Below the pieces are notes generated by a model. That model had not been told where the DNA came from, searched no databases, and saw only the letters and a list, made by a program, of their open reading frames with translations. This document shows positions 2,153-17,113 of a stretch of DNA of 20,035 nt, piece after piece; the first letter of the stretch is position 1; each line of letters opens with the position of its first letter. The stretch is taken from the NCBI GenBank assembly GCA_051382335.1, contig JBBCAX010000324.1, positions 1 to 20,035 on the forward strand, in the 5' to 3' direction. A program made the translations under genes and the position numbers. Source of the stretch: Deltaproteobacteria bacterium TL4. Lineage in GTDB: Bacteria > SAR324 > NAC60-12.

Positions 2153-2791
2153 CTAGCGATTTCCTCTGAATAATCGACGTACTGGCAACACGGTATCCAT
2201 AATATTTTCCATCAAAGAAGTCGGCTTTTCTCCAGGAAATGTTTGGTCTAAATAGGAAAGAATATCCTGAATTCCATCCATCCACAAATCCCCGTGTTGT
2301 AGAACCGGTAATTTAAAGCGCCCCATTCGCTCATTGATCTCATGGATGTACTCAGACTTTCGTTTGACCGTAATGGCTTCATATTTCAATTGTTTCCGCT
2401 CCAAAGCGGAACGTATTCTTTTGCAGGAAGGGTTGTGCTTTTCCTGAAACAGGACCAGCGGCACAGATGTTGACGGTTTCGGAGGAGAGACCACCATGGA
2501 AATGAAACTGTCTGCTCCTGTACCCGATAGGGACGTGTTGCCGCCTAATGCTTTTTTGGGAGACTTCACGGTCTTGGGACTCGAAACTTGAGCTCTTGGG
2601 TGGGAAGCTGCCGCCTTCTTCTTTCGCTCATGTTTTTGCCATAAGTGGAGTATTTCTTCTTCCAACACCTTTGAGCCAATGTTGCCTTGCTTTTTAAGCA
2701 CAGTACCACGACTTCTTCCAAGCTTTTCTGAAACAGCGGCTTGGGAACCATATATTGTGATGAGCTCATCCAATGCTTCCAGGGCAGTCAT
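2153..2791 (-). CDS. Protein with a C-terminal GST-N/glutaredoxin-like domain and a possible N-terminal HTH
   Basis: C-terminal LFQEKHNPSCKRIRSAL...KLPVLQHGD...DILSYLD resembles the thioredoxin-like GST N-domain. GGAG lies 6 nt before ATG 2791 (the ORF track starts at 2803). Confidence 0.65.
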   Translation of the reverse strand: MTALEALDELITIYGSQAAVSEKLGRSRGTVLKKQGNIGSKVLEEEILHLWQKHERKKKAAASHPRAQVSSPKTVKSPKKALGGNTSLSGTGADSFISMVVSPPKPSTSVPLVLFQEKHNPSCKRIRSALERKQLKYEAITVKRKSEYIHEINERMGRFKLPVLQHGDLWMDGIQDILSYLDQTFPGEKPTSLMENIMDTVLPVRRLFRGNR

Positions 2792-2868
2792 GAACATCTC
2801 CAATTAAAAGGTGATAGAACGATTTCACGGGTATAGTTACCTAAACAATAGCATCGGATAGAAGAACC

Positions 2869-3158: not shown

Positions 3159-3318
3159 TGATAATCTGATTATAAATAATTACATTCTTTTTCTATCAGG
3201 TTCTGTTACATCAGTCAATGTTTATTATACCTATAGTACTAGGAATCAGGTTTGGTATTGTGTTGATATTATAAAATATTATGAGATATTCTTCCTTTAT
3301 TTTTTAAAAGAGATGCCT

Positions 3319-3444
3319 ATGAAATTGGAAGAATATCAGTTTAGTTCTGGAGAAATTAAAGAACTTGAGCAGTACCGAGATAAGCAACCTGATTCTCGAC
3401 TCAAACAACGTTTTATCAGCTTACTGATGTTGGCTGAAAAATAG
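3319..3444 (+). pseudogene. N-terminal stub of a probable IS630-family transposase
   Basis: MKLEEYQFSSGEIKELEQYRDKQPDSRLKQRFISLLMLAEK* resembles IS630 HTH N-termini (from recollection). The TAG stop is supplied by the first 3 nt of the repeat starting at 3442. Confidence 0.55.
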
Positions 3445-3629
3445 ACATCTTTCCAAAATATAGTGTTCCAGAAAAGTATTTTGGACTGGGAGCGCAGGCG
3501 TCCCGCCTGCTTTTGCGAGCAAGAGGCCCGCGTTCCCAGGAAAGACTTATCTGAAAGTCTATAGAGCCTGGATTTTAAAGGATTTGTGGGTATGAGCCTC
3601 CTCCTTTACAGTTTTTCAGAATTTCAAAT
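3442..3629 (+). repeat. Repeat A, copy 1 (TAGACATCTTTCCAAAATA...GCCTGGATTTT...TTTCAAAT), interrupted by a MITE
   Basis: Collinear with 3776-4186 once each copy's insert is removed. The first 19 nt are identical. Confidence 0.8.
3461..3561. mobile_element. 101-bp MITE with TA duplication (IS630/Tc1-mariner-like) carrying a CTGGGAGCGC-type REP-like doublet
   Basis: IRs tagtgttccagaaaag and (rc) tagactttcagataag match 12/16. TA lies at 3459-3460 and 3562-3563. The sibling repeat copy shows the empty site (caaaaTAaagcctgg). Internal inverted hairpin pair at 3486-3510 and 3515-3539. Confidence 0.75.
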
Positions 3630-3652
3630 ACACAGGGATCCCTTTGAAAAAA

Positions 3653-3775
3653 GGCTCTTCGAGATTTCCCGTGGTTTTTTATTTCTATAAATGTTAATAA
3701 AATCAAATTACTGTAAAATTCTAACATTTATTGAATAAGGAATCATGGCAACATTTGAAGTGGAATTGGATATAT
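3653..3775 (+). mobile_element. Probable ISL3-family left end and transposase start, truncated
   Basis: Begins GGCTCTTCGAGATTT (GGCTCT-type terminus typical of ISL3). 10-bp IR at 3687-3696/3722-3731. RBS AAGGA and ATG 3745 give MATFEVELDI, cut by repeat A copy 2. Confidence 0.45.
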
Positions 3776-3869
3776 TAGACATCTTTCCAAAATAAAGCCT
3801 GGATTTTAGCGAGTTCACGGGTATCCTCCTCTTTTACAAAATTTTCGAGCTGTGCAGGTGGTTTGAAAA

Positions 3870-3984
3870 TTAACCACGAAAAACACGAAAAACACGAAAT
3901 AAATGATTTTTTAATAAATGAATTTCTCCGTGAACCCCTATTTTGCAGGTTTTATTTCGTGTTTTTAGTGTTTTTCGTGGTTAA
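3870..3984. repeat. 34-bp inverted repeat built from three 9-bp CACGAAAAA units
   Basis: 3870-3903 ttaaccacgaaaaacacgaaaaacacgaaataaa pairs with 3951-3984 at 33/34, with a 47-nt spacer. Confidence 0.9.
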
Positions 3985-3990
3985 AAAAAG

Positions 3991-4141
3991 GGCTACTGGT
4001 CTAAAGTGGGACAAAAACGTAGGTTGGGTAGAGCGTAGCGAAACCCAACGAAAAACGGACATTACTGCCTGGATGTTGGGTTTCGCTACCGCTCTACCCA
4101 ACCTACTGAAATGATGGCTGTCCCGTCTTAGGCCAGTAGCC
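3991..4141. mobile_element. 151-bp MITE (GGCTACT...GGGACA ends, 8-bp TSD, IS1595-like) carrying a GTAG REP doublet
   Basis: IRs ggctactggtctaaagtgggaca and (rc) ggctactggcctaagacgggaca match 19/23. TSD AAAAAAAG at 3983-3990 and 4142-4149. Confidence 0.85.
4019..4106. repeat. GTAG-type REP doublet (REPIN-like)
   Basis: gtaggttgggtagagcgtagcgaaacccaac (4019-4049) and its inverted copy (4075-4106), which differs by a 1-nt insertion. Each arm has a GTTGGGT/ACCCAAC hairpin. Confidence 0.9.
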
Positions 4142-4206
4142 AAAAAAAGGTACCTGCACAGGTGGAAAATTTTCAGTATTTCAAATGTATTGTAAGGAGG
4201 ACCTAT

Positions 4207-4307
4207 AGGGTGGGCAAGAGACTAATCCCCAATCCCTATTCCCTAATCCCTTGAAATGGCAACTTCATTAGATGGGGAATTGGGAATGTTATTTATGAGC
4301 CATTCCT
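4207..4307. repeat. Heptamer tandem/inverted repeat element, possibly with degenerate IS ends
   Basis: Four 7-mers (taatccc caatccc tattccc taatccc, 4223-4250) and two inverted copies (4274-4287). Flanks agggtgggcaagagactaa and (rc) aggaatggctcataaataa match only 10/19. Confidence 0.55.
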
Positions 4308-4395
4308 TAGTAAAACAAGATCCCGCCCAAGCGGTGAATCTATTTTTGTGTCCAGGGAGCGGTGTTTTTTTAGAGGCAAAGTGGTAAAAACGCCC

Positions 4396-4425
4396 TTGCT
4401 CATTTTATTTAAAATTTGCTAATAT
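4396..4425 (+). promoter_or_regulatory. Candidate sigma70 promoter for the 4558 gene
   Basis: TTGCTC-N18-TAATAT with a TG extended -10. Confidence 0.3.
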
Positions 4426-4557
4426 CAAGATTACGATTAAGATCACGAATCGCGAATGATCGTCGTAGAATCAACTCTGTTCCGCCTTGCGTGGATGCCT
4501 AATGTTCTCATCATTCCAAGTCTTTTGAGACCAACCCTGTTTAGTGATTGACAATTT

Positions 4558-5820
4558 ATGGAATCTACACCGACGAGCCAAATCAAAAATTCAAGTTCTA
4601 ATGTAAAACCGTCCGCGTGTTATTTAACCGCCAAGTTCAATCCGGCAATGACGGATTGTATTCCGGATCTGGGGGATTTTTACGCGAATGAACTCAAGTT
4701 AAGACGAGAGGAAATAAAGACGCACTCCAGTGGTCTCATCAACTCCGCGGGTCGACTTTTTCAATCGATCCTGGGCACCAAAGCGGATATTTCAAGTCAG
4801 AAAAGCGCACGAGTTTCGGGGTTGGAAATTGCCGCGTTTACCAAGCAAAACATGGTTGCGCTTACCAAACATTTAGAAAAGAAACCGCTGACTCACGCGA
4901 AACGCTTGCTGTTGGTTTCACAAGTCTCAAAAACGTCAGGGCAATACAATTTGACTCAATTGAGAAAACTTCTCATGCAAGCCTCGGTTCCTCCCTGTTT
5001 GGGGTATTATAATGTGGCCAATATCAGAACGATTCAAGAACTCTATGGTCTTTATTTGGGCGAGTTGCAAAAACGCATGGCTCAGGAACTGGAAAAATGC
5101 GACACGGCGATGATGAGGCTCGCGGATGAAGCGAAAGATGTGACCCCTTATAAAAAATTGAGGGTCCGTCTTAAGCGAAATCTGGATCTTATCGAAAAAA
5201 CGATTAAAGGCCTGCCCGCGAAATTAAAAGAAAAAGATAAGGGCGATCTGTCATTAACGAGGGACAAGCTGAATCAGGCGGTTGATGGTACGATCTCCTT
5301 AATCAGCAAAAACCTGGAACAAACCAGAAAAGACCTGGAAGATAAGTTGATTCACCTGGTTCGCGCGATGGCCATCCTTCCCTTTCTTCATTTTGAGTTG
5401 TTCGAACTTGCCAGGTTTTCAGCTAATTTGGTTTCAAAAAGTCCTTTCCCCGCTTATTTGGAGGCGTATATTTATTTAAAGAAAATTCAGCAGACCGTCC
5501 TGTTGTTTGAATGTGAATTTCCTGTGCAAAAACGGATGTCTACGGAATTTCAAAAATGCCTCCAGGCTTTTGCTCTTGCTACCAAACAACTTGCTCAGAT
5601 TCCAGAGCGGAATGTGGGACATCGTCAGATTCTGCTGGATCATGCTCGCTGCTGTCTTTTGGCCTACAGCATGAAAAACGCGCTCAATATGCCTCCTGCC
5701 GCCGCAAAAAAACTGGCGCAAGCCGGATTTCAGTCTTTGAAAAATTCTCAACTTCCACGTGAAGAGGATACCGGTAAGCTGCATGATCGGTATCTGGAAA
5801 TCATCATTGCTTCCGATTAA
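4558..5820 (+). CDS. Hypothetical protein, largely alpha-helical (420 aa)
   Basis: Long ATG ORF with Leu/Lys/Ala-rich helical composition and no recognised motif. Confidence 0.75.
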   Translation: MESTPTSQIKNSSSNVKPSACYLTAKFNPAMTDCIPDLGDFYANELKLRREEIKTHSSGLINSAGRLFQSILGTKADISSQKSARVSGLEIAAFTKQNMVALTKHLEKKPLTHAKRLLLVSQVSKTSGQYNLTQLRKLLMQASVPPCLGYYNVANIRTIQELYGLYLGELQKRMAQELEKCDTAMMRLADEAKDVTPYKKLRVRLKRNLDLIEKTIKGLPAKLKEKDKGDLSLTRDKLNQAVDGTISLISKNLEQTRKDLEDKLIHLVRAMAILPFLHFELFELARFSANLVSKSPFPAYLEAYIYLKKIQQTVLLFECEFPVQKRMSTEFQKCLQAFALATKQLAQIPERNVGHRQILLDHARCCLLAYSMKNALNMPPAAAKKLAQAGFQSLKNSQLPREEDTGKLHDRYLEIIIASD

Positions 5821-5825
5821 AGTCT

Positions 5826-7358
5826 CTAAAAAGGAGGGGTGTTAAGGTTTTTACGGATAAGGGTGTGGAGCAAATTTTTGATTTTCAGATAAAGGGCCTG
5901 TTTTTCCTGACGGTGTCCAGAAAAGAGTTCCGCGAACAGACGAAGTCCCATCATTCCGGCAAAAACCAGACACCCTCCTGTCATTTCAACCCAACGACCG
6001 GGTTGGTACCAGTACAGATAGAACGGCCAGAGCAACGCTACTCCAAAAAGCACAAAGGAGAGCTCAATGGGAGCAAGAATCGCTCTCCAGTTGAAATCGA
6101 GCAACTTTCCATAAACCCGGTTAATGTATAAAGTCTGCGGAAAGGTCGCCAAGCGCGAAAGTCCCGCACCCGCATCTCCAAAAAGGAGCATTAGGGGATA
6201 AATAAAAACGACGACAAATAAGGCTTCTAACCAGTTAAAAATGCTGGTTTCTTTTATGTTTTTTAACGCTAACAGGCCAAAGAGAGGAATAAAGGAATGG
6301 CAGTAAGCCAAGTTTTGTAGAGAGGCTAAGATCACAAATATTCGTGAACGTTCTCCAAATTCAGGCGTGACCATTAGTGTCATCATCAGCGGTGCAAAAA
6401 TCAGCATCCCCAAGCTGAAGGTAAAGACTATCAGGCTGACCACCCAGCGTTGAAGATAGTCGATTTGTTTCGCTTTGTGGAGGGCATTGGCGCCTTCCGC
6501 GGAAAGTACAGGAAAATAAGTTCGGCAAATTCCATCCAGGAGGAAGACAATCAGTTCCCGGAAGCGGTGTACCATAGCATAGACAGGAAGTGTGGAAACT
6601 CCTCCCCAATAACCCAAAATAAGACGATCTACCTGGCCATGCAGAGGGTCCGCCAGCGAGCCCAGATAGGCGGTTCGGGTAACAACGGGCATTTGAGACA
6701 GGAGCCGAAAGGACAAATTAGGCAGCCAGAACTTTTGCGTGATACGGCAAGCATAGAGATAAAAATGCAGGCTTTTTAATAAGCCCATGACAAACAGGCT
6801 CAAGCCGTAATTCAAAAGCGTTGGAGACACCCACGCCATTCCAAGGACAACCAGGGGGGTCACGAATTCATAAATCCCTTTGAGGGTATTGGCTAAGACG
6901 ATTTTCTGTTTTCCATTCAAATAGGCGCTGATGAGGAAATTAAACCGTTGTAGAAAATCGATACCGAGAATCAAGCTCAGATTGAGAAAGAGATCTGCTG
7001 TGTGGAGATGTAAGGGGTTAAGGCCCAGGAATTCAAAGCTGCCAAGCAACAAAAAAACCGCTTCAATCCCCGCATAGGTAAGGCATAAGAACCCCAAGGC
7101 CGCACCTAAGAGGCTTTGGTACTCAGAAAAAGGCGCGTTTTTTCTTTCCGCAACATATTGAGTGACCCCCCTGAAAAGAACAATATTTCCTGTGAAACAA
7201 AATAAAAAAGCGCAGCCCGCCTGAATGTAGTGGAAAAACCCGATGCCCACTTCACCAACACTCTTAATGACATAGCCTAACGACCCCAGCACGAGGAGCG
7301 ACTTTAACAGGGTGAAAAAAATGTGGACCAGGCCGCTCTTGAGTGCGATTTCTAGCAT
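5826..7358 (-). CDS. Oligosaccharide flippase family (Wzx/MOP) membrane protein
   Basis: 510 aa with ~12-14 hydrophobic segments. QVDRLILG...YAMVHR...TYFPVLS is a pattern typical of polysaccharide flippases. Confidence 0.75.
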   Translation of the reverse strand: MLEIALKSGLVHIFFTLLKSLLVLGSLGYVIKSVGEVGIGFFHYIQAGCAFLFCFTGNIVLFRGVTQYVAERKNAPFSEYQSLLGAALGFLCLTYAGIEAVFLLLGSFEFLGLNPLHLHTADLFLNLSLILGIDFLQRFNFLISAYLNGKQKIVLANTLKGIYEFVTPLVVLGMAWVSPTLLNYGLSLFVMGLLKSLHFYLYACRITQKFWLPNLSFRLLSQMPVVTRTAYLGSLADPLHGQVDRLILGYWGGVSTLPVYAMVHRFRELIVFLLDGICRTYFPVLSAEGANALHKAKQIDYLQRWVVSLIVFTFSLGMLIFAPLMMTLMVTPEFGERSRIFVILASLQNLAYCHSFIPLFGLLALKNIKETSIFNWLEALFVVVFIYPLMLLFGDAGAGLSRLATFPQTLYINRVYGKLLDFNWRAILAPIELSFVLFGVALLWPFYLYWYQPGRWVEMTGGCLVFAGMMGLRLFAELFSGHRQEKQALYLKIKNLLHTLIRKNLNTPPF

Positions 7359-7361
7359 ACG

Positions 7362-8054
7362 TTAGGGTTTGTGCTCCAACAGACCTGCTCGTTTTTTAAG
7401 TTCCAACAATTCCAGATCAACACTTGAGGACTTATTTTCCAGCTCTAAAAATTTCTTTTCTAAACTGTCTCGACCGGAGTCCATGGAAAGTTCTTGATAG
7501 GCTTCCGACTTCGCCTGCATGGCTTCGACCTTTTCTTCCATCCGTTCAATGGTTTCAATCGTGCTGGCATTGCTATTGATGCCTTCCAGCGTTTGGTAAA
7601 GTTTATTCTGAGCCTCGGCCTGGCGTTGTTTGGCGACAAGTAACCCTTTTTTACGTTTGATTTCTTCAATCTTGTCTTCAAGTTTTTGATAATTCAACCG
7701 TAAGGTTTCCGTATTTTTAGTATAGAGCGTGACCTGTTTTTCGTACTCCAAGGCCCGTTTGTCATGTTCATTTTTTCGCAACAAGGCTTCTTTTGCCAGT
7801 TCATCCCGGTCATTCTGAACGGCCAAGATCGCTTTTTGCTCCCACTTGTGAACTTCTTCCTGTTCCTGGGCCCAGGTTTTTTCCAAGCGTTTCTGATCGG
7901 CAAGGGTCTGGGCCAGTTGATCTTTGGCTTGCCGCTTTTGGGCTTCCAAATCAGTCACCATCTGATTTAACATTTTTTCGGGATCTTCCGCACTGTCCAA
8001 AAGACTGTTCACATTAGAACGGAACACATTGATGAATCTGGAAAAAATACTCAT
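7362..8054 (-). CDS. pspA: Phage shock protein A (PspA/IM30 family)
   Basis: MSIFSRFINVFRSNVNSLLDSAEDPEKMLNQ, LAKEAL and ERMEEKV coiled-coil motifs. GGAG precedes ATG 8054. Confidence 0.93.
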   Translation of the reverse strand: MSIFSRFINVFRSNVNSLLDSAEDPEKMLNQMVTDLEAQKRQAKDQLAQTLADQKRLEKTWAQEQEEVHKWEQKAILAVQNDRDELAKEALLRKNEHDKRALEYEKQVTLYTKNTETLRLNYQKLEDKIEEIKRKKGLLVAKQRQAEAQNKLYQTLEGINSNASTIETIERMEEKVEAMQAKSEAYQELSMDSGRDSLEKKFLELENKSSSVDLELLELKKRAGLLEHKP

Positions 8055-8085
8055 AAGACTCTCCACTCAAAAAACCGTTAAGGAA

Positions 8086-9765
8086 CTAAAAAAGTTGTTT
8101 CCGTTTATTAGAGGGCAAGATATTCAAGGCTTCCCTGTACTTCGCGACGGTTCTCCTGGCCACTCGAATATTGCTCCGCTTATAAAGGATATCCGCAATT
8201 TGCAAGTCGGTGTAAGGAGAACGCAAATTTTCATTTTGTACGAGTTGTTCAATCATTTCCTTGATACGTTTTGAAGAGATGGATTCTCCTCCGTCCTGAT
8301 CAATACCACTGGTGAAAAAATATTTCAGCTCAAAAATGCCCTGAGGGGTATGAACATACTTATTGGTCGTAATCCGGCTGACCGTCGATTCGTGGACATC
8401 AATATCTTCAGCGACATCTTTAAGAACTAAGGGTTTTAAGTAGTGAATGCCTTTGTCTAAAAAATCTTTTTGAAACTTGAGGATACTTTGAGTGACCCGA
8501 TAAATCGTTTTTTGGCGTTGTTCAATGCTTTTCATCAACCATTGACCTGATTTAATTTTTTCCTGGATGTATTCCTTGGTCAGATTTCCATCCTCTTCCA
8601 TGGTTTCTGAAAGATTTTTGTAGTAATTGCTGACTCGAAGCCGTGGAATGCCCTGTTCATTGAGCGCAACTTTATATTCGTTATTAGACTTATAGATGTA
8701 AACATCAGGAATGATATAATGATGAGAAGGGGTATCGACATAGGCTCGTCCAGGTTTAGGTTCAAGCGACATGATCAGCTTATAGGCCTCAATCACATGC
8801 TCCAGATCCTGCTTGTGCCGCCGTGCGATTTTTCTTAAGTCTTTGCATTCCAATAACGACATGTCTTTGCTGACAATCTGATAGCAAAGTAAATCTTCCA
8901 TCCCATTCATTCTTAATTGGATCAACAGACATTCCTGTAACTGACGGGCCCCCACTCCATTGGGGTCAAATTCCTGGATCCTGAGTAACACCTGTTCCAC
9001 AAAATAGGCAGCTTCCAACGAGACTTCAATCGGCTGTGACGTGTCCTCCTCCTCTTCGACGTTTTCCTCAAATGTAGGCGGTGTATTTTTCTTCCCCTTC
9101 ACCATATCGGTTTTTTTACCCGGCACAAATTTGTGATCCAATTGTGTGATATCGAAATCCTCAGGGACCTCCCAGGGGGACTCTTTAAATTGCTCCAAGA
9201 TGGCTTCATGCAATTCAGGGTCAAGTTCTAAGAGTTCTCGTATGCTTGTGGTTAAATAGCCGTCATTTTCAATGTTTCCAATGAGTTGAAGTCCAATCGC
9301 ATAATCCAGAGGTTCCACGTTGAGCATATTCAACTGCCAGGTGAGGTGCTCTACCAAAGATTTCTCATGGGTTAAGGTCGCTTCCAGAGAAGGATAGTCC
9401 TCATCATTAGAAGAAGAAGACACTCGTTTCTCTCCTTGGTAGGAACTGAACTCCACATACTGCTGCCAGTCAATGTCTTCTGGGCTTTGAACGGTTTTTT
9501 CGATCTCCCGTACCGTTTCAAAAATAGAAGAGGATTCTGAAACGACATCCATTTTTTCTGTGGTGTCTTCAGCTTTCTCATTCAAGGTGGGGTAGGTATC
9601 AATGTCGATCGATTCCTCTAAGACAGGATTCTCAATCAGAGACTGATCAATCAGTTCCTCCAGTTCTGTCCGGGACAATTGCAGCAACTTAATTGCCTGT
9701 TGCAATTGAGGAGTCATGATCAACTGTTGACTTAACCGCATTTGCAGCTTCATTTGCATAGCCAT
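8086..9765 (-). CDS. rpoN: RNA polymerase sigma-54 factor
   Basis: Region I QQLIMTPQLQQAIKLLQL, HESTVSR HTH, ELKYFF and RpoN box ARRTVAKYRE. Confidence 0.98.
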   Translation of the reverse strand: MAMQMKLQMRLSQQLIMTPQLQQAIKLLQLSRTELEELIDQSLIENPVLEESIDIDTYPTLNEKAEDTTEKMDVVSESSSIFETVREIEKTVQSPEDIDWQQYVEFSSYQGEKRVSSSSNDEDYPSLEATLTHEKSLVEHLTWQLNMLNVEPLDYAIGLQLIGNIENDGYLTTSIRELLELDPELHEAILEQFKESPWEVPEDFDITQLDHKFVPGKKTDMVKGKKNTPPTFEENVEEEEDTSQPIEVSLEAAYFVEQVLLRIQEFDPNGVGARQLQECLLIQLRMNGMEDLLCYQIVSKDMSLLECKDLRKIARRHKQDLEHVIEAYKLIMSLEPKPGRAYVDTPSHHYIIPDVYIYKSNNEYKVALNEQGIPRLRVSNYYKNLSETMEEDGNLTKEYIQEKIKSGQWLMKSIEQRQKTIYRVTQSILKFQKDFLDKGIHYLKPLVLKDVAEDIDVHESTVSRITTNKYVHTPQGIFELKYFFTSGIDQDGGESISSKRIKEMIEQLVQNENLRSPYTDLQIADILYKRSNIRVARRTVAKYREALNILPSNKRKQLF

Positions 9766-9994
9766 ACACACCTGTTCTTTGTTAATGTTAGTTGAAGCAT
9801 TTCTGTTGTTTCTCTTTGTGGGAATAGAGAATGAGTTACTCTAATCAGTGGCTATGAGTCTTTTGTGATTCTCATATTTTTTGTATCAACCCCGGCTGAG
9901 AATTTGCTCCTAACGGCAAAAATCGGACCAAAATATTGCACTGTTGTTTTTTACATAGGCTAACGGAAATAAAAAGTCAAATTTGAGGATGCGT

Positions 9995-10717
9995 TTACAT
10001 AGAAAAACTTTCTCCAAGGTAAACTTTCCTGGCTTGCTGATTTCTAAAAAGTTCTTTAGGGGTCCCCTGAACCAGCAATTCTCCCGCATTCATAATATAG
10101 CCGTGATCAATTATGCCAAAGGTTTCTCGGACATTATGGTCGGTGATCAAGACCCCAATATTTTTTTCGGTTAAGTGCCGTATGATTTGTTGAATGTCTA
10201 AAACCGCAATGGGATCAACTCCGGCAAAGGGCTCATCCAGCAGAATAAACGTAGGTTCCAGCGCCAACGCCCTGGCAATTTCCGCACGACGACTTTCACC
10301 TCCTGAAAGGGCATAGCCCTTGAGCTTGCGGACATGATGAATCCCCAGTTCATTGAGCAGTTGTTCGAGGCGCTGCTGTTTCTCTGCCTTCGAAAGGCTT
10401 AACATTTCCATGACCGCTAATAAATTTTGTTCGACCGTTAATTTTCTAAAAATAGAGCGTTCCTGGGATAAATAACCGAGTCCGGCTTTTGCCCGACGAT
10501 GCATGGGAAGTTGCGTGATATCCCGCTCGTCGATAAAAATAGAACCCGTATCCGGTCTGATCACGCCTGCAATCATATAAAAAGTGGTCGTTTTGCCTGC
10601 TCCATTAGGCCCCAGAAGTCCTACAACATGTCCTTGAGACACTTCGATGGAGACGCCTTTGACGACTTGACGACCTTTGTAAGATTTAATTAAGCCTTTA
10701 GCAATTAATCGTTTCAT
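9995..10717 (-). CDS. lptB: LPS export ABC transporter ATP-binding protein
   Basis: GPNGAGKTT, LSGGESRRAEIARAL, LLDEPFAGVDPIAV and LITDHNVRET. Located upstream of rpoN. Confidence 0.97.
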   Translation of the reverse strand: MKRLIAKGLIKSYKGRQVVKGVSIEVSQGHVVGLLGPNGAGKTTTFYMIAGVIRPDTGSIFIDERDITQLPMHRRAKAGLGYLSQERSIFRKLTVEQNLLAVMEMLSLSKAEKQQRLEQLLNELGIHHVRKLKGYALSGGESRRAEIARALALEPTFILLDEPFAGVDPIAVLDIQQIIRHLTEKNIGVLITDHNVRETFGIIDHGYIMNAGELLVQGTPKELFRNQQARKVYLGESFSM

Positions 10718-10776
10718 GTTGATCTCATAGAGGTACTCGTCAGTGAACAGTTTTCCGTGAGCAGTTATAAAATATT

Positions 10777-10803
10777 TTTCGTGTTATTTCGTGAATTTCG
10801 TGG
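10777..10803. repeat. Solo TTTCGTG triad arm
   Basis: tttcgtgttatttcgtgaatttcgtgg, the same unit as the right arm at 3955-3980. Confidence 0.6.
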
Positions 10804-10982
10804 ACTCCGTCAAAAATAACGCATTAAGACTTTACACTATTATTCTCGATTGTCGTTTGAGGGAAGTTGTCCTAAATTAATTTAACATTTGAGTATTTTT
10901 ATGTTACACTCCCTCCTCCTGTATTTAAGAATTCATTTCCAAATAAACAAACCATTTTAAAGAAAGTGGAGAGATAGTCAAT

Positions 10983-11330
10983 ATGCCAATCTACGAATAT
11001 ATTTGCAATGATTGTAATTATGAATTTGAAGAACTACAAAGATTCAATGACCCTCACCTTGAGCAATGTCCTCGCTGTGGAGTCCGCCACGTGGAGCGTA
11101 AAGTCTCCGCAAGCGCCTTTCATTTAAAGGGAGGAGGCTGGTACAAAGACGGGTATTCTTCCGCGCCAACGTCAGCATCAGAATCAACGTCAGCATCAAG
11201 CGAAGGCGCGAAGTCTTCCTCAAAGACGGGAGGCGAATCCAAGAAAAGTGACACAAGCAGTAAAGATTCAAAATCGTCTTCAGAGAACTCTTCCAAAGTT
11301 CCCGCGCCCAGTACGTCCAGTGCCGCTTAA
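10983..11330 (+). CDS. FmdB-family zinc-ribbon protein with Ser-rich tail
   Basis: MPIYEYICNDC...CPRCG...FHLKGGGWY, RBS GGAGA. Confidence 0.92.
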   Translation: MPIYEYICNDCNYEFEELQRFNDPHLEQCPRCGVRHVERKVSASAFHLKGGGWYKDGYSSAPTSASESTSASSEGAKSSSKTGGESKKSDTSSKDSKSSSENSSKVPAPSTSSAA

Positions 11331-11336
11331 ACAGAA

Positions 11337-11528
11337 TTAATCCCAGACAAAATCATCTTTACTGACTTTTTCAATCAGCGATTGCAGTTCCTCCCCTGAT
11401 GGGGGGGAAAACAAGCTTTTCTCGAGGGCCTCCTCTTCTGATTCAAAAGAGGGGACAAGCTCTGAGAGCTTCTTCCTTTGCTTCCAAATTTTCCTTTCAA
11501 TCCTATTGATTCTCTTACGATTTGCCAT
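11337..11528 (-). CDS. Small hypothetical protein (63 aa)
   Basis: GAGGG RBS before ATG 11528. Basic N-terminus (MANRKRINRIERKIWKQRKK) and acidic C-terminus. Confidence 0.55.
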   Translation of the reverse strand: MANRKRINRIERKIWKQRKKLSELVPSFESEEEALEKSLFSPPSGEELQSLIEKVSKDDFVWD

Positions 11529-11757
11529 TTTATATACCCTCATCAGCAATCTTAAACCCTAAACATCGCACACTCATTTATAGCGTTTTTAAAGATTATC
11601 TACAATGTTTAAACTAAGGAAAGGGTGAGGTTGGGTTCTATTGAGGACCCCTCGGGTTTCGCCCTTGCGTTTCGCCAGGGGTTCATGGTATTCACTACGG
11701 GAACACGCTGATTCAGCGGTTGTCAGGTTTTGAAAAATAGTTTAGACGAATGGCCGC

Positions 11758-12552
11758 ATGGCAATCTCACTAGCATTTCGTGAATATGGACTTAAGGGAC
11801 CTCCGCTCATTATCTTACACGGGTTACTGGGTTCTTCGAGCAACTGGGCGACTATTGCTCGTCAACTGCAGGCTGATTACCATCTCTGGGTGTTAGATTT
11901 GAGAAATCACGGGGATTCCGCGCATGTTGAAACCATGACTTATGAAGAAATGGCTGAGGATGTCTTTGCGTTTATGGACTGTCATGAGTTAGGTCCTTCC
12001 CTGCTTTTGGGCCATAGTCTGGGAGGGAAAATCGCAATGTGGTGCGCCTTGCAGGATCCCCTGCGCTTTTCGCGCTTATTGGTTGCGGATATTGCGCCTG
12101 TCGCCTATGATCATTCCCATTTAGAGCTGGTGCACCTCTTGAAAAAGATTGATTTAACGGCTGTTACCAAACGGGATGATGTCGAGCAGATGCTGACTTC
12201 TGAAATTCAGGCAAAACCTTTGAGACAGTTTTTAATGAAAAATTTGTACGTCAACCAGGGGAGCTTTCGATGGAAAGTAAATTTGGACGCAATTGAAAAA
12301 TCGGTGTCTCAACTCAGTAGTTTTCCACAAAGCGTGAATCAGGCTTACTTGGGAAAAACGCTGTTCATCGGGGGCGTTAAGTCGGACTATCTTACAAGAC
12401 AACACTATGCGGAGATTTACCGGTTATTTCCTGCTACCCAAATTGTGATGTTGAAGGAGGCAGGGCACTGGTTGCATGTCGATCAAGCGGAACATTTTGT
12501 CCAGACCCTCCGTGCTTTTTTAAGACCCCAGGGGACTGTTCAAAAATGCTGA
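11758..12552 (+). CDS. YbfF/ABHD11-like alpha/beta hydrolase (esterase)
   Basis: LHGLLGS, DLRNHG, GHSLGG, DIAP and AGHWLH. Confidence 0.92.
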   Translation: MAISLAFREYGLKGPPLIILHGLLGSSSNWATIARQLQADYHLWVLDLRNHGDSAHVETMTYEEMAEDVFAFMDCHELGPSLLLGHSLGGKIAMWCALQDPLRFSRLLVADIAPVAYDHSHLELVHLLKKIDLTAVTKRDDVEQMLTSEIQAKPLRQFLMKNLYVNQGSFRWKVNLDAIEKSVSQLSSFPQSVNQAYLGKTLFIGGVKSDYLTRQHYAEIYRLFPATQIVMLKEAGHWLHVDQAEHFVQTLRAFLRPQGTVQKC

Positions 12553-12556
12553 AATG

Positions 12557-12644
12557 GTAGGGGGCCGCTGAGCTTGCGAAGCGCACCAGAAAACTTGCTG
12601 TCCCTTGTTTTTGGTGCGCTCGCTTCGCTTAAGCGGCACCCTCC
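12557..12644. repeat. GTAG-type REP-like doublet
   Basis: gtagggggccgctgagcttgcgaagcgcacca versus the inverted copy (rc) ggagggtgccgcttaagcgaagcgagcgcacca. Confidence 0.7.
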
Positions 12645-12742
12645 TTAGGCGCGATATTCCCGGACTGACGATTGGTCTAGGTAAACGATGGGGCCCCCCG
12701 ATTAAGCGTTGTCAAATCATATCAATTCGTAGGATAAAATTT

Positions 12743-13117
12743 ATGAAACAGATATTGGTTGTGGAAGATAATGAAAATAATCAGCTAGTGATTGATGATA
12801 TTTTTCGTCGTTATCGAAAAGAGTATCAATTGCGTTTTGTCCAAAATGGTCAACAACTGTGGGCGTCTCTGGAGCAGGAGTTGCCCGACATGATTCTGCT
12901 GGATATGCGGCTGCCTGGAGTCTCAGGGTGGGAATTGGCGGAACAATTGAAAGCAAAAGCGGAAACAAGGCATTTGCCCCTGATTGCGGTGACAGCTCAT
13001 GCGATGAAAGGCGATGAAGAGCGAGCACGAGCCGCCGGGTGTAACGATTTTGTGACCAAACCTATTCAAAAGCAGACGCTCCTGGACAAAGTGAAACAAT
13101 GGATGGCTCAGACGTGA
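12743..13117 (+). CDS. Single-domain response regulator (DivK/CheY-like)
   Basis: ILVVEDN, ILLDMRLPGVSG, AVTAHAMKGD and VTKPI. AGGA RBS before ATG 12743. The longer ORF start reads through the REP. Confidence 0.93.
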   Translation: MKQILVVEDNENNQLVIDDIFRRYRKEYQLRFVQNGQQLWASLEQELPDMILLDMRLPGVSGWELAEQLKAKAETRHLPLIAVTAHAMKGDEERARAAGCNDFVTKPIQKQTLLDKVKQWMAQT

Positions 13118-14064
13118 TAGTAGGAACGATACCATTCAATGAATCTTGGAATACCTTCCTCAATTTTGGTGGTGGGGTGAAAACCATATAATTTTTGAAT
13201 TTTCTCTATATCCGCATAGGTCTCAGCAACATCTCCAGGTTGGAGGGGGAGATAATTTCTTTGAGCCTTTTTACCTAGACAGTTCTCGATGATCGTAATA
13301 AACTGCTCCAACGCTTCGGACTGGTGGTTCCCGATATTAAAGATTTCATAAGGCTGAGGGTTTTCCAGACAGGCGATTACTCCCGAAACGATATCATCAA
13401 CATAAGTAAAGTCCCGCTTCATTTTGCCATGGTTATAGACATCAATGGGCCTGTTTTCAAGAATCGCCTTGGTGAATAAAAATAAAGCCATATCCGGACG
13501 TCCCCACGGTCCATAGACGGTGAAGAATCTCAGTCCCGTTGTGGGAAGATGGTAAAGGTGGCTATAGGTGTGCGCCATCAATTCGTTTGCTTTTTTAGTG
13601 GCCGCATAGAGAGAAATCGGATGGTCCACGGGATCTTCAACACTGAAGGGGAGTTTTTTGTTTTTCCCATAAACTGAAGAAGAAGAGGCGTAAACAAAAT
13701 TAGCGACTTGGTGTTTTTTAGAGAGTTCAAGGATGTTGAGGAACCCTTCCAGGTTACTTTTTTGGTAGGCAAAAGGATTCGTTATGGAGTAACGTACTCC
13801 AGCTTGGGCCGCCAGGTTGCAGACCGCATGAATCGAATGTTGGTTGAAAACCAGTTGTAAGGCTGCCAAATCGGTCAAATCATAGGGGTAGAAGTGAAAA
13901 TTGGGTTCTTTCTGAAGAAGCGCAAGGCGGTCTTTTTTGAGCTGAACGTCATAGTAATCGTTTAAATTATCAAGCCCTATGACGGTTTTGTTGCCTTGTA
14001 ACAGACGCTGTGCTGTATGAAATCCAATAAATCCTGCGGCACCTGTGACTAAGTATGTATCCAT
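13108..14064 (-). CDS. NAD-dependent epimerase (UDP-glucuronate 4-epimerase/CapI-like)
   Basis: TGAAGFIG, LAAQAGVRYS, YAATKK and YGPWGRPDMA. AAGGAG RBS before ATG 14064. Confidence 0.93.
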   Translation of the reverse strand: MDTYLVTGAAGFIGFHTAQRLLQGNKTVIGLDNLNDYYDVQLKKDRLALLQKEPNFHFYPYDLTDLAALQLVFNQHSIHAVCNLAAQAGVRYSITNPFAYQKSNLEGFLNILELSKKHQVANFVYASSSSVYGKNKKLPFSVEDPVDHPISLYAATKKANELMAHTYSHLYHLPTTGLRFFTVYGPWGRPDMALFLFTKAILENRPIDVYNHGKMKRDFTYVDDIVSGVIACLENPQPYEIFNIGNHQSEALEQFITIIENCLGKKAQRNYLPLQPGDVAETYADIEKIQKLYGFHPTTKIEEGIPRFIEWYRSYYHV

Positions 14065-14205
14065 AAAATATCTCCTTAAACGAATTGAAGCGGGTAAGCT
14101 AGCGGATGCAAATCTGAAAATCAAGTCATCTGGTGTCGGACTTAAAGTTCCCTGTGGGAAACTTTGCGCTGTAGCTGAAGCTATGAATATAATAAGAGGA
14201 TCAAA

Positions 14206-14814
14206 ATGTTACGGTTATTTTTTGATGTTGATGGGGTTTTATTGGACTTTGAAAGTCGCTTTATTCGCGTCATAAAAAATTATTTCAGTTTAGATATTTC
14301 TGATAATTATCAGTCCAATAGTTGGGATTTTACGGAGTTATTGACGCCAGCACAACTTATCGAAAGTTGGGAATATTTTCTATCCAGCGAGCATTTTGGC
14401 ACATTGGACCCCCTCGTGGACCCTGTGATGTTTAACGAGGTTTATGGGGCATATCCTGTGCATTTCATTACGAACATTCCTCCTGATTATTTAGAAGTAC
14501 GACGAATGAACTTGCTCCATGCGGGATTTCAATTTGAATCTATCCATTGCGGAGGTATGCTTTCATTTGATGACAAGCCACCGTGCACGAAGGGGGAAAT
14601 GATCCAAAATATAAGACAAAAGGGTGAAACGATATTTTTTGTGGATGATCATCCTGATAATTGTGTGAATGTCCATACTTTGTGCCCACAGTCGATTGTG
14701 TGGTTAATGTCCCGTTCTTTCAATCAAGGATTTGAGCATCCTGAAATACGACGAGCAGAGCATTGGAATGAGGTTTTCGCATTTTCCAAAGAACTTGCGG
14801 GAACATTTCAATAA
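14206..14814 (+). CDS. HAD-superfamily hydrolase (5'-nucleotidase-like)
   Basis: Motif I FDVDGVL, motif II ITN, Lys (TKG) and motif IV FVDDHPDN. AGGA RBS. Confidence 0.75.
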   Translation: MLRLFFDVDGVLLDFESRFIRVIKNYFSLDISDNYQSNSWDFTELLTPAQLIESWEYFLSSEHFGTLDPLVDPVMFNEVYGAYPVHFITNIPPDYLEVRRMNLLHAGFQFESIHCGGMLSFDDKPPCTKGEMIQNIRQKGETIFFVDDHPDNCVNVHTLCPQSIVWLMSRSFNQGFEHPEIRRAEHWNEVFAFSKELAGTFQ

Positions 14815-14852
14815 AAGATGCCGATGACGGATGCGGTTTGGGTGAATCATCA

Positions 14853-15803
14853 ATGTTAGACCTTATACGTTATCGAAACGTGAAATGCTTGCTTATCCTC
14901 TTGTTTGGGACGGGGTTATTCGTTATGGGAACCCCTGTGCTTTTATATGCGCAGACGGAAGACCCCAATGCACCGGCCGTTGATAATGCGGCGAATGTTC
15001 CTGTAGAGGATACGGGAACCGCGGCAAGTAGTGCCGCTCCTGGTGGCGCTTTTTGGCGTGTTGCTTTTTATGAAGTCCTGGCACAGCGGTTCCTGCAGCA
15101 TCCGTTTTATCGAATGACAGGCAATTGGCGTTTCAAAGAGGGGGCGGGCTCTCTTAACTCCAGTCAGGATAATATCCGTTTGCTTTCAACAGAGCAGGAC
15201 CTAGACAGACACGACCAGGTGGAAAGCGATTTACAGCGCTTAACACATTCTTTGCCTGTGGGCTCTGTGGAATACATTACTCCCACAAATCTGATTTTCA
15301 TCACGGGGGTCAGTGTGATGGCCGGATACACGAACACCTGGCTGATGGATAATGTCGCGAAAATTACTAAAAATGATCCCATTTCTTCAACTCCTATTAT
15401 TCGATTACGGTCTCATTTCTTTTATTCTGCGGTTTCTGTTTATTTGTTTAGTCCTCCTCAAGCGGATACTATTGATTTTTACTATGGCCTTGGCTATACG
15501 TATGTCGAAAGTACCTTACGCACCGGGTTTCGCAGAAGAGGAACTCGTCTTCCTATCCCGACCAGTACGGTTGAAGAGCTGAATGCCTATGTAGCGGAAA
15601 AGCCTCTGTTTCTCAAACGGATCGGGATGGCCTCCTCAGGAGAAAATTTTGGATTTTCTTTTGAAACGATCATTCTCGATAATACACCGATTCTTGAAAA
15701 TCCTTTTTATGACAGCCCCTTAATCAAAACCCGTCCTTTAGATAAAAAAATCAATATCGGTGGAATTTTATTGCGGGCCACGGTGATCTATAGTTTTTGG
15801 TAA
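14853..15803 (+). CDS. Hypothetical exported protein, possibly an outer-membrane beta-barrel
   Basis: Signal-like N-terminus (…VLLYA|QTE), amphipathic strands (FYYGLGYTYV) and aromatic C-terminus ATVIYSFW. Confidence 0.65.
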   Translation: MLDLIRYRNVKCLLILLFGTGLFVMGTPVLLYAQTEDPNAPAVDNAANVPVEDTGTAASSAAPGGAFWRVAFYEVLAQRFLQHPFYRMTGNWRFKEGAGSLNSSQDNIRLLSTEQDLDRHDQVESDLQRLTHSLPVGSVEYITPTNLIFITGVSVMAGYTNTWLMDNVAKITKNDPISSTPIIRLRSHFFYSAVSVYLFSPPQADTIDFYYGLGYTYVESTLRTGFRRRGTRLPIPTSTVEELNAYVAEKPLFLKRIGMASSGENFGFSFETIILDNTPILENPFYDSPLIKTRPLDKKINIGGILLRATVIYSFW

Positions 15804-15815
15804 AGACGGCCATCG

Positions 15816-16745
15816 TTAACCTTTCTCCAGAAACTTCATAATATCCCGCAGGATCTGATTTTCGGAGCCTTTGGTGTACCAGTGTATTTGCGTTTCTTTA
15901 TGGAACCAGGTTAATTGGCGTTTTGCGTAATTTCTGGTTTTTTGTTGAATCTTTTCAATCATTGTTTCGCGATCTAATTCCCCTTGCAGAAACTGTAGAA
16001 TTTGATGGTATCCGATTGCGTGTAATGGTTTCAGATGGGGAGGATATAGTTTCAGGAGTGCTTCCACTTCCGCAACCCATCCTGAGCGGAGCATCTCATA
16101 GGTCCGCTGATTAATTCGTTCATAAAGGACAGGGCGCTCAAAAGCATATCCAACGGTAAAGAGTGAATATTTGAGAGTATCAAAAGGCTGTTGCTGTTGA
16201 AAGTGCAGGAGGGACTCTCCCGTATAGAGTACGACTTCCAAGGCCCGTAATATTCGAGTGGTATCATTCGGGTGGAGTTGTCGCGCCGCCTGAGGGTCTG
16301 TTTCCTGTAGCCGTTGAAAGCAATAAGCCAAGCCTTGCTCGTGATGCCAGGCTTCGATTTGTTGCTTGAGCTCTGGGGGAACGTTGGGGATTTTTGAAAT
16401 CCCATAGACGGCAGCCCGGTAATACAAGCCTGTTCCTCCAACAAGAATAGGAACGGTCGGTTGCTTCAGAAGTTGCGGTAATAACTCATCAAGATCCCGT
16501 TCATAGGCACCGGCAGAGTAATCACCGTCAGGGTCCACCAAATCCAATTGGTAGTGTGGAACCAGTTGTCTTTCCTGCAGGCTCGGTTTGGAGGTGCCAA
16601 TATCCAGCATACGGTAAACTTGCATGGAGTCTGTACCAATCAGGACTCCTCCCAATTGCTGCGCCAGCCATAAGGCTAAATCACTTTTACTACTGGCGGT
16701 TGGGCCGACAACGGCAATTATTTTAGGTTTTTTTGAGTCGGACAT
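15816..16745 (-). CDS. miaA: tRNA dimethylallyltransferase
   Basis: GPTASSKS, DSMQVYR.LDIGTSKP, VGGTGLY, RILRALEV and TRNYAKRQLTWF. Confidence 0.97.
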   Translation of the reverse strand: MSDSKKPKIIAVVGPTASSKSDLALWLAQQLGGVLIGTDSMQVYRMLDIGTSKPSLQERQLVPHYQLDLVDPDGDYSAGAYERDLDELLPQLLKQPTVPILVGGTGLYYRAAVYGISKIPNVPPELKQQIEAWHHEQGLAYCFQRLQETDPQAARQLHPNDTTRILRALEVVLYTGESLLHFQQQQPFDTLKYSLFTVGYAFERPVLYERINQRTYEMLRSGWVAEVEALLKLYPPHLKPLHAIGYHQILQFLQGELDRETMIEKIQQKTRNYAKRQLTWFHKETQIHWYTKGSENQILRDIMKFLEKG

Positions 16746-16958
16746 GGCGCTAATTAATTTCCCTTCCTGGTTTTAAGAAACCGCGTCAATTCGACACGGG
16801 CATAAAAGAATGGACTATGAAATGCATTTCTTTAAGATAAATATTGCTGAACTTTGTGTCTTTTGTCTTTTTGTAGAATATTTCACGCCGGTTTCCCAGT
16901 ATACGTGAATTCAATAGTCAAATCAACTTCATACGGAAATGAGTTGAATACTACAAGG

Positions 16959-17082
16959 GGCTACTCACTTAAGCGGGACATTGGTAGGCGGGGATTACAT
17001 GCCCCGCTTTTCTGATCGTTGAGGTTGCCGGACACGTAGTTCCGGCCTACCATCGGGGTGTCCCGGGCTTAAGTGAGTAGCC
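16959..17082. mobile_element. 124-bp MITE (GGCTACT...GGGACA ends, 8-bp TSD, IS1595-like) carrying a GTAG REP-like doublet
   Basis: Perfect 16-bp IR ggctactcacttaagc (16959-16974 and 17067-17082), followed by gggaca/tgtccc. TSD CTACAAGG at 16951-16958 and 17083-17090. Confidence 0.88.
16983..17051. repeat. REP-like doublet inside the MITE
   Basis: ggtaggcggggattacatgccccgc and (rc) ggtaggccggaactacgtgtccggc. Confidence 0.8.
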
Positions 17083-17113
17083 CTACAAGGGATGTTCAAG
17101 AAGAAACAAATTA

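Follow-up and report, generated by a model that had tools for sequence, protein, structure and literature searches.

Short palindrome-bearing elements in a SAR324 contig

We analysed contig C324 (JBBCAX010000324.1, assembly GCA_051382335.1) of Deltaproteobacteria bacterium TL4, a member of SAR324; the window below is this whole stretch of 20,035 nucleotides. The genome, designated G000, is a 6.59-Mb draft of 445 contigs (whose labels begin with C). The window holds five short elements, A to E, in which the ends of insertion sequences (ISs), here called the shell, accompany a repeat core, here called the cargo. In A to D the cargo consists of two inverted repetitive extragenic palindromes (REPs) that form a hairpin; REPs also occur beside genes of REP-associated tyrosine transposases (RAYTs). 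The origin and spread of these shell-and-cargo units are the subject of this report. Between 3231 and 4310, truncated left ends of ISs follow one another in a chain, and A and B jumped into this cluster. The features, with target site duplications (TSDs), are as follows.

3231..3441 (+), left end together with the 5' portion of a truncated IS630-family transposase gene, forming host DNA for the cluster; it matches the DDE_3 (IS630) element at C375 at 80% over the left end, with a protein match of E 4e-14
3442..3650 (+), copy 1 of the truncated left end of the C126 DDE_Tnp_1 element, target of A; the C126 transposase is preceded by the same end
3461..3561 (no strand), element A: IS630-like ends, TA duplication (3459-3460, 3562-3563), REP doublet at 3486-3539; genome copies exist, a RAYT gene at C336 is flanked by the same REP and the ends resemble the IS630 right end at C86
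3653..3775 (+), truncated left end of another, putatively ISL3-like IS; a repeated end with 11 BLAST hits
3776..4206 (+), copy 2 of the C126-type IS left end, interrupted by B at AAAATTTT; C356 and C419 have versions that lack the insertion
3846..4165 (no strand), element B: left and right ends like those of ISKra4/ISLre2, an 8-bp TSD and a palindrome of tandem repeats with arms at 3870-3903 and 3951-3984, C lying inside; identified by its copies and ends, and by similar repeats that flank GxxExxY (PF13366) genes
3991..4141 (no strand), element C: DUF6399-type ends, 8-bp TSD, GTAG REP doublet at 4019-4106, nested in B and moved with it; a RAYT gene at C287 is flanked by the same REP
4207..4306 (no strand), element E: what remains, after loss of the left end, of a 164-bp GGAATG-family element (its right two-thirds), with heptamer repeats as cargo; intact copy at C397:7398-7561
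16959..17082 (no strand), element D: DUF6399-type ends, 8-bp TSD CTACAAGG, GTAG REP doublet at 16984-17050; genome copies, and related units in G009, another genome of the host's phylum used for comparison

An earlier note, made from the sequence alone, had described A to E as palindromes wrapped in IS ends. For A to D, the ends, the TA or 8-bp duplications and the palindromic cores that it delimited were all found. The ends are complementary at 15/20 positions in A, with TA at both borders; at 12/16 in B, with AAAATTTT at both borders; at 19/23 in C, with the TSD AAAAAAAG; and at 16/16 in D, with the TSD CTACAAGG. Copies of the host IS end that lack A read through a single TA, which confirms the duplication at A, and the empty target site of B is present in C356 and C419, which confirms that at B. 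Folding z-scores relative to 200 shuffles were -4.2 for A, -8.8 for the B core, -10.8 for the C core and -7.5 for D. [quoted passage not shown] Rfam gave no match within the window.

E, called the weaker element in the earlier note, has a folding z-score of 0.0. The ends assigned to it did not hold: they pair at 7/16 positions only, and at 4207, its left border, a deletion has joined it to the host IS end. E as delimited lacks the MITE form, which its intact relative has; that copy (C397:7398-7561) is 164 bp long, is bordered by TAA at each end and has termini similar to those of the GGAATG family. This makes a fourth end type beyond the three that the earlier note called clear; C and D share one end family, with GGCTAC ends.

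B inserted independently at neighbouring positions of the same C126-type end in C132, C240 and C87. The first 130 bp of this IS left end are a hot spot that several MITE families struck independently (window 3442-3650 and 3776-4206; C132, C240, C87, C94, C104 and C22).

Ends and cargo replicate together

Copies covering at least 85% of the element length number 91 for A (related subfamilies included), 9 for B with C inside, 17 for C, 21 for D and 3 for E. Among 32 end-to-end copies of A, 20 have TA on both sides and 30 have distinct flanks. A TSD borders 7 of the 10 end-to-end copies of D and 5 of the 8 of B with C, every one different within its set; for C it borders 11 of 13, with 4 different sequences, one of them merely inherited inside B. 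Because the inner TSD of C is identical in the B-borne copies, B moved while carrying C. TSD length tracks the end type and not the cargo. The end-plus-cargo composites are thus the replicating units, and the combinations, whose uniqueness would have spoken against the proposal of the earlier note, recur genome-wide with different TSDs.

Two loci illustrate further layers of insertion. At C135:17002-17400, one A-type and one D element have inserted into a RAYT gene that has F-type REPs at its flanks, and at C103:28795-29856 an A-type MITE contains what we take to be a group II intron-like sequence without an open reading frame (ORF).

Sources of the hairpin cores

The genome contains twelve Y1_Tnp matches. 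RAYT-like genes are flanked by REP A (C336:3128-3358), REP C (C287:20501-20830), REP F (C135), REP N (C302 and C414), REP L (C257) and a K-like REP (C374). The RAYT genes with matching flanks that the earlier note proposed to look for thus exist for the cargoes of A and C, and none was found for that of D. C and D carry GTAG REPs, but not every cargo is a GTAG or RAYT REP. The B core is the kind of repeat, not the same sequence, that stands at the flanks of four PF13366 (GxxExxY) genes, and the heptamers of E are the kind that flanks a PF05635 four-helix-bundle gene. Genome searches with GIY-YIG and DUF559 found no gene flanked by cargo repeats, the flanks of the GIY-YIG match lying outside the check. 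On C437, three GxxExxY genes have three different flanking repeats, and single repeats are scattered between the genes of that contig.

Sources of the shells and the DUF6399 family

The shells are IS ends of 22-45 bp (66 nt in family N). The ends of the CAATAC family are those of a broken IS4 element at C85. B's ends adjoin fragments that match both the ISKra4 and the ISLre2 models at E 1e-8 to 2e-15, below the cut-off. For A, the similarity is to the right end of an IS630 element at C86, and the TA duplicated at A also fits IS630; a matching left end was not found. The GGCTAC ends of C and D belong to elements coding for DUF6399, of which G000 has seven matches, and 14 public GGCTAC ends (7 left, 7 right) run into DUF6399 coding sequence. 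IS1595 was rejected as the source of these ends: in the flanks that were read, the lone PF12762 fragment is not accompanied by such an end, and the ends lead into DUF6399 genes. Of the autonomous ISs expected to share the terminal repeats, ends were thus recovered for B, C, D and the CAATAC family, and for A a related right end only.

DUF6399 is a large family (1788 matches among 7999 scored). In an alignment of 90 sequences, D143, D198 and E455 are invariant. A structural model with a pLDDT of 88 found Hermes (E 6e-5) and ISCth4 (E 1e-3) as its best Foldseek matches, at TM-scores of only 0.3-0.4; a single-sequence model (pLDDT 40) was discarded. A profile search of solved structures gave weak helix-turn-helix matches only, NCBIfam has no model for the family, and no paper naming it was found in a literature search that left most subscription journals out of reach. 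The predicted fold and the conserved acidic residues suggest that DUF6399 is likely a DDE transposase with a helical insertion domain, serving a large IS family whose ends read GGCTA and whose TSD is 8 bp long.

Genome-wide census of ends and cargoes

Short inverted-repeat elements with TSDs were scanned for and clustered on end sequence, and 17 end families were carried forward. In parallel, 19 REP probes yielded 595 non-redundant loci, after 69 probe-level loci near contig edges had been dropped. Among these, 295 lie inside one end family, 24 inside mixed ends and 179 beside one end, and 97 have no end; the corresponding figures for 1500 random spots are 4, 1, 110 and 1385. Counting strict end pairs only, 246/595 REP loci fall in 4.3% of non-ORF DNA (48,082/1,119,091 bp), an approximately tenfold enrichment obtained with probes most of which were derived from MITEs. 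The earlier note's expectation that REPs are commoner inside MITEs than in other DNA agrees with this result.

The cross-tabulation of ends and cargoes that it had proposed gave 14 end labels and 24 combinations, some of which may represent nested shells. Of the cargoes probed, five occur in GGCTAC ends, and two or three different end types were seen for each of the cargoes D, F, G, J, K and O. Modularity therefore runs both ways, with several cargoes per end type and several end types per cargo.

As an independent control, we followed repeats that flank genes and have no shell. Those beside two RAYTs, one four-helix-bundle gene and four GxxExxY genes were found at 2-7 loci, many of which share a contig with the gene itself. 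For the REP of the C374 RAYT, a sequence similar to the shelled cargo K, the number of loci is 31. Among the long end pairs examined, no shell enclosed a REP-gene-REP arrangement of the kind expected for a mobile insertion cassette or transporter IS.

Occurrence in other genomes

GGCTAC ends were found at at least 110 loci in Methylococcales, Desulfobacterota, cyanobacteria, Beggiatoales and others. Of 57 short paired GGCTAC elements outside G000, 41 hold a hairpin of -10 kcal/mol or better, a count made without a shuffle control and with many elements from the same genomes, and their cargoes are mostly unlike those of G000. Within the host's phylum the distribution is patchy: D occurs in 1/30 other genomes, the GGCTAC end pattern in 5/87 and B in 3/87. 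G009 has several B copies about 82% alike, and units related to D.

A further unit, X (for example C260:689-797, with about 20 other places), is 109 bp long and carries a D-type REP doublet; it has neither terminal repeats nor a TSD and forms tandem arrays. It follows TTAA in 17/21 copies. Its left-end motif occurs at 108 metagenome loci, 50 of them with a recognisable right end; these 50 comprise 37 with REP-like cargo, 3 near-empty and 10 other. No shared transposase was found near the 108 public X ends. The missing TSD and the fixed target fit IS110/IS1111, and the lone PF02371 locus has no X end in the stretches read.

Architecture of the shells and a proposed route of origin

Five shells (B, GGCACC-M, GGCACC-P, C330-I and N), the two GGCACC shells holding different cargoes, match an IS left end at one border and an IS right end at the opposite border, over 22-45 nt (66 nt in N). 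Because left and right ends pair up in this way, we read these shells as ISs with a replaced interior, and the earlier note's suggestion that a palindrome may replace the transposase gene fits this build, which most testable shells share. The linker of C443 continues or resembles the right subterminal sequence of DUF6399 elements over about 44 nt. Nesting is directly visible in C inside B, in a heptamer element inside a G009 copy of B, and in unit X inside a GGCTAC end.

These arrangements suggest that REP doublets likely took the place of IS interiors. In the route that we propose, a REP doublet, bare or within a smaller element, would land in an IS or MITE; the IS interior would next be lost through deletions that the hairpin or RAYT nicking promotes; and only trimmed units retaining both ends would keep multiplying. 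RAYT cleaves at CT or CA on either side of the REP, as the accessible part of PMC8266576 describes. A wider form of this idea is that REP doublets act as general MITE-makers whose arrival in any IS triggers trimming to bare ends. Palindrome-flanked genes (RAYT, GxxExxY and four-helix bundle) and DDE or recombinase elements would then form one network, with cores passing from shell to shell and between phyla without an enzyme of their own. We put this forward only tentatively, as possible and still rather doubtful.

Weighing the explanations

We consider it probable that the units are non-coding IS derivatives, made of two short IS ends round a REP doublet and present in many copies at different TSDs, which the DDE transposase of each end type likely moves in trans while the doublet likely spreads as a passenger. 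Their structure, copy number and TSDs were established directly, as were the identity of cores A and C with RAYT-flanking REPs, the identity of shell ends with the ends of transposase-coding elements, and the copying of C in B as a unit. Mobilisation by an end-specific transposase is what these sequence relationships would imply.

Several observations weigh against this reading. In the draft genome we found no intact autonomous element whose ends are exactly those of A, B, C or D, the partners being broken or cut by contig ends, and the TM-scores of the DUF6399 model are low. No RAYT gene flanked by REP D or J was found in the assembly, and RAYT nicking cannot explain the B and E cores because the genes with such flanks have no HUH domain. 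Family J has two left-type ends, and the C, D and CATAGTC ends allow no call of left or right. No bare REP doublet was found within an otherwise long IS or transposase gene, in a search swamped by matches of a query that included MITE sequence; the trimming step is accordingly a conjecture. In the census, the random comparison spots were genomic and not restricted to intergenic DNA, some both-sides calls may be nested shells, and the enrichment is inflated because most of the 19 probes were taken from MITEs. Finally, 77/334 short end pairs have no probe match, and 50 of these 77 make up three wholly cargo-free MITE families. The other 27 include, among the examples displayed, mostly different palindromes. 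The earlier note had held that common cargo-free MITEs with the same ends would undermine its proposal: such forms are rare among the 14 end families with cargo, where roughly five examples, near-empty or ordinary deletion forms, were seen, but the three other families are cargo-free, and 16/57 public short GGCTAC elements lack a strong hairpin.

The units might have a mirror origin, in which fold-back template switching copies a single IS end to the far side of a REP hairpin, making a two-ended unit that is then spread by a DDE transposase. The two ends of family J, identical over about 23 nt with related linkers, would suit this, as would a 54-bp near-palindrome, lacking a TSD, of the left part of a 232-bp element. 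The arms of the 54-mer differ at 4 positions, however, and could stem from recombination of two inverted copies, while the left-plus-right ends of the five testable shells are something that a mirror copy cannot yield; we regard this origin as improbable. We give about the same low credence to the idea that empty shells came first and were repeatedly filled at a preferred central site by REPs inserted by RAYT or a similar enzyme, the cargo remaining exchangeable. In Methylotuvimicrobium buryatense 5G, shells occur both filled (171 bp) and empty (71 bp), and what sets them apart is the cargo together with a 9-bp direct repeat; relative to four siblings, a copy in another genome contains an additional 25-bp GTAG REP; and at least five cargoes occur on one end type in G000. 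A 97-bp partial-deletion form in a sister genome points instead to cargo loss by slippage, different cargoes come with different linkers instead of one common empty shell, and empty shells are rare in G000.

A different question is whether the hairpin is retained for a benefit to host or element, as a two-way terminator, an RNA stabiliser or an aid to end pairing. The same layout with at least 14 end labels and in a shell without terminal repeats suggests either selection or a strong mutational route. Against a benefit, cargo-bearing shells lie between convergent genes in 17/104 classifiable cases (16%), compared with 14% of intergenic DNA (178/284 being unclassifiable), so that element positions give no support to a terminator role, and cargo-free families attain similar copy numbers. 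Retention for such a benefit seems to us unlikely, if somewhat less so than either of the alternative origins. Chance co-location in junk-DNA hot spots, or an assembly artefact, would be in keeping with the window cluster, a graveyard of truncated IS ends, and with MITEs nesting in one another; but identical composites occur at many unrelated sites with clean, differing TSDs, empty target sites exist, and the layout recurs in closed genomes of other phyla, which leaves this explanation with hardly any credibility.

Comparison with known systems

The comparisons that follow draw on the accessible portions of the works cited. Prokaryotic MITEs moved in trans (Correia/NEMIS, RUP, ERIC and Nezha; PMC3184786, PMC3733652) are likewise short and non-coding, share terminal inverted repeats with ISs, have a family-specific TSD and reach many copies. 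The interior here differs from theirs in being a REP doublet of another mobile system instead of an IS remnant, and the cores are common to unrelated end types.

REPINs and their RAYT/TnpA-REP enzymes (PMC3116915, PMC3337134, PMC8266576, PMC6006769, 10.1101/2021.07.10.451892) resemble the present units in the inverted REP pair with spacer, in the GTAG tag (C and D) and in the presence of the same REPs at RAYT genes (A and C). REPINs are held to be distinct from MITEs, RAYT-dependent and duplicating about a thousandfold more slowly (10.1101/2021.07.10.451892). In contrast to REPINs, about half of the loci here stand between IS ends with DDE-type TSDs, and the unshelled partner repeats stay local. 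Nor did we find the doublet replicating alone, without IS ends or TSD, as a REPIN does: 295/595 loci lie between IS ends and 97 are without any end. Judged by its sequence features, each unit behaves as a MITE with a REP doublet for a core, yet a doublet that does not appear to move by itself.

Repeats of separate origin inside MITEs are known from the BrickBuilt MITE, with its internal minisatellite, and from hitch-hiking microsatellites in eukaryotic MITEs (PMC4596501); there the repeat is a tandem satellite in one or two families, whereas here palindromic REP doublets occur in many end families and phyla. Possibly the same phenomenon is the TATAG-ended hairpin MITE of Ca. Thiomargarita nelsonii (PMC4853749), in which IS630-like ends surround a long hairpin with a wider occurrence than the full unit. 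In the accessible part of that paper, whose figure and supplements may bear on priority, neither is the hairpin recognised as a REP doublet nor is an end-by-cargo modularity described. Mobile insertion cassettes and transporter ISs (PMC3129680) also carry a passenger on IS ends with a cognate transposase; there the passengers are genes and here a non-coding palindrome. The REP-targeting ISs IS1397, IS621 and IS1594 (PMC3184786) share the link between IS and REP with the opposite topology, the IS lying inside the REP there and the REP doublet inside IS ends here.

A literature search to which most subscription journals were closed found no description of REP doublets inside IS ends, and the accessible portions of PMC3184786, PMC3733652, PMC10969869, PMC3116915, PMC3337134, PMC6006769, PMC4766695 and PMC3129680 contain no account of them. 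The spread of REP sequences is still described as an open question (PMC8266576, accessible part). Amplification of doublets as IS-end passengers would be a second route for REPs, one that would uncouple REP copy number from RAYT and would be fast, perhaps even across species. It would also offer a route by which MITEs arise, and DUF6399 gains a likely role, that of a widespread DDE transposase whose ends are defined and whose TSD is 8 bp long. The coexistence of filled and empty shells in a cultured methanotroph provides a potential test system.

Other features of the window

Two predicted proteins were noted in the window: a 420-amino-acid helical protein at 4558-5820 (+), with no family above the cut-off, and a glutaredoxin/GST-N protein (GST, glutathione S-transferase) at 2153-2803 (-) with a long unexplained N-terminal part. 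Further traces of repeats and shells are scattered along the contig. A degenerate F-type REP doublet at 12557-12668, with about 200 BLAST hits, is probably in a decayed shell; it overlaps a called ORF at its start and had escaped the earlier note. A K-type REP, also decayed, lies at 11641-11705. One GGGGTT-family end is present at 101-127, and at 911-990 there is a tandem-repeat palindrome of the kind that flanks GxxExxY genes, other copies of which are found in GGAATG shells.

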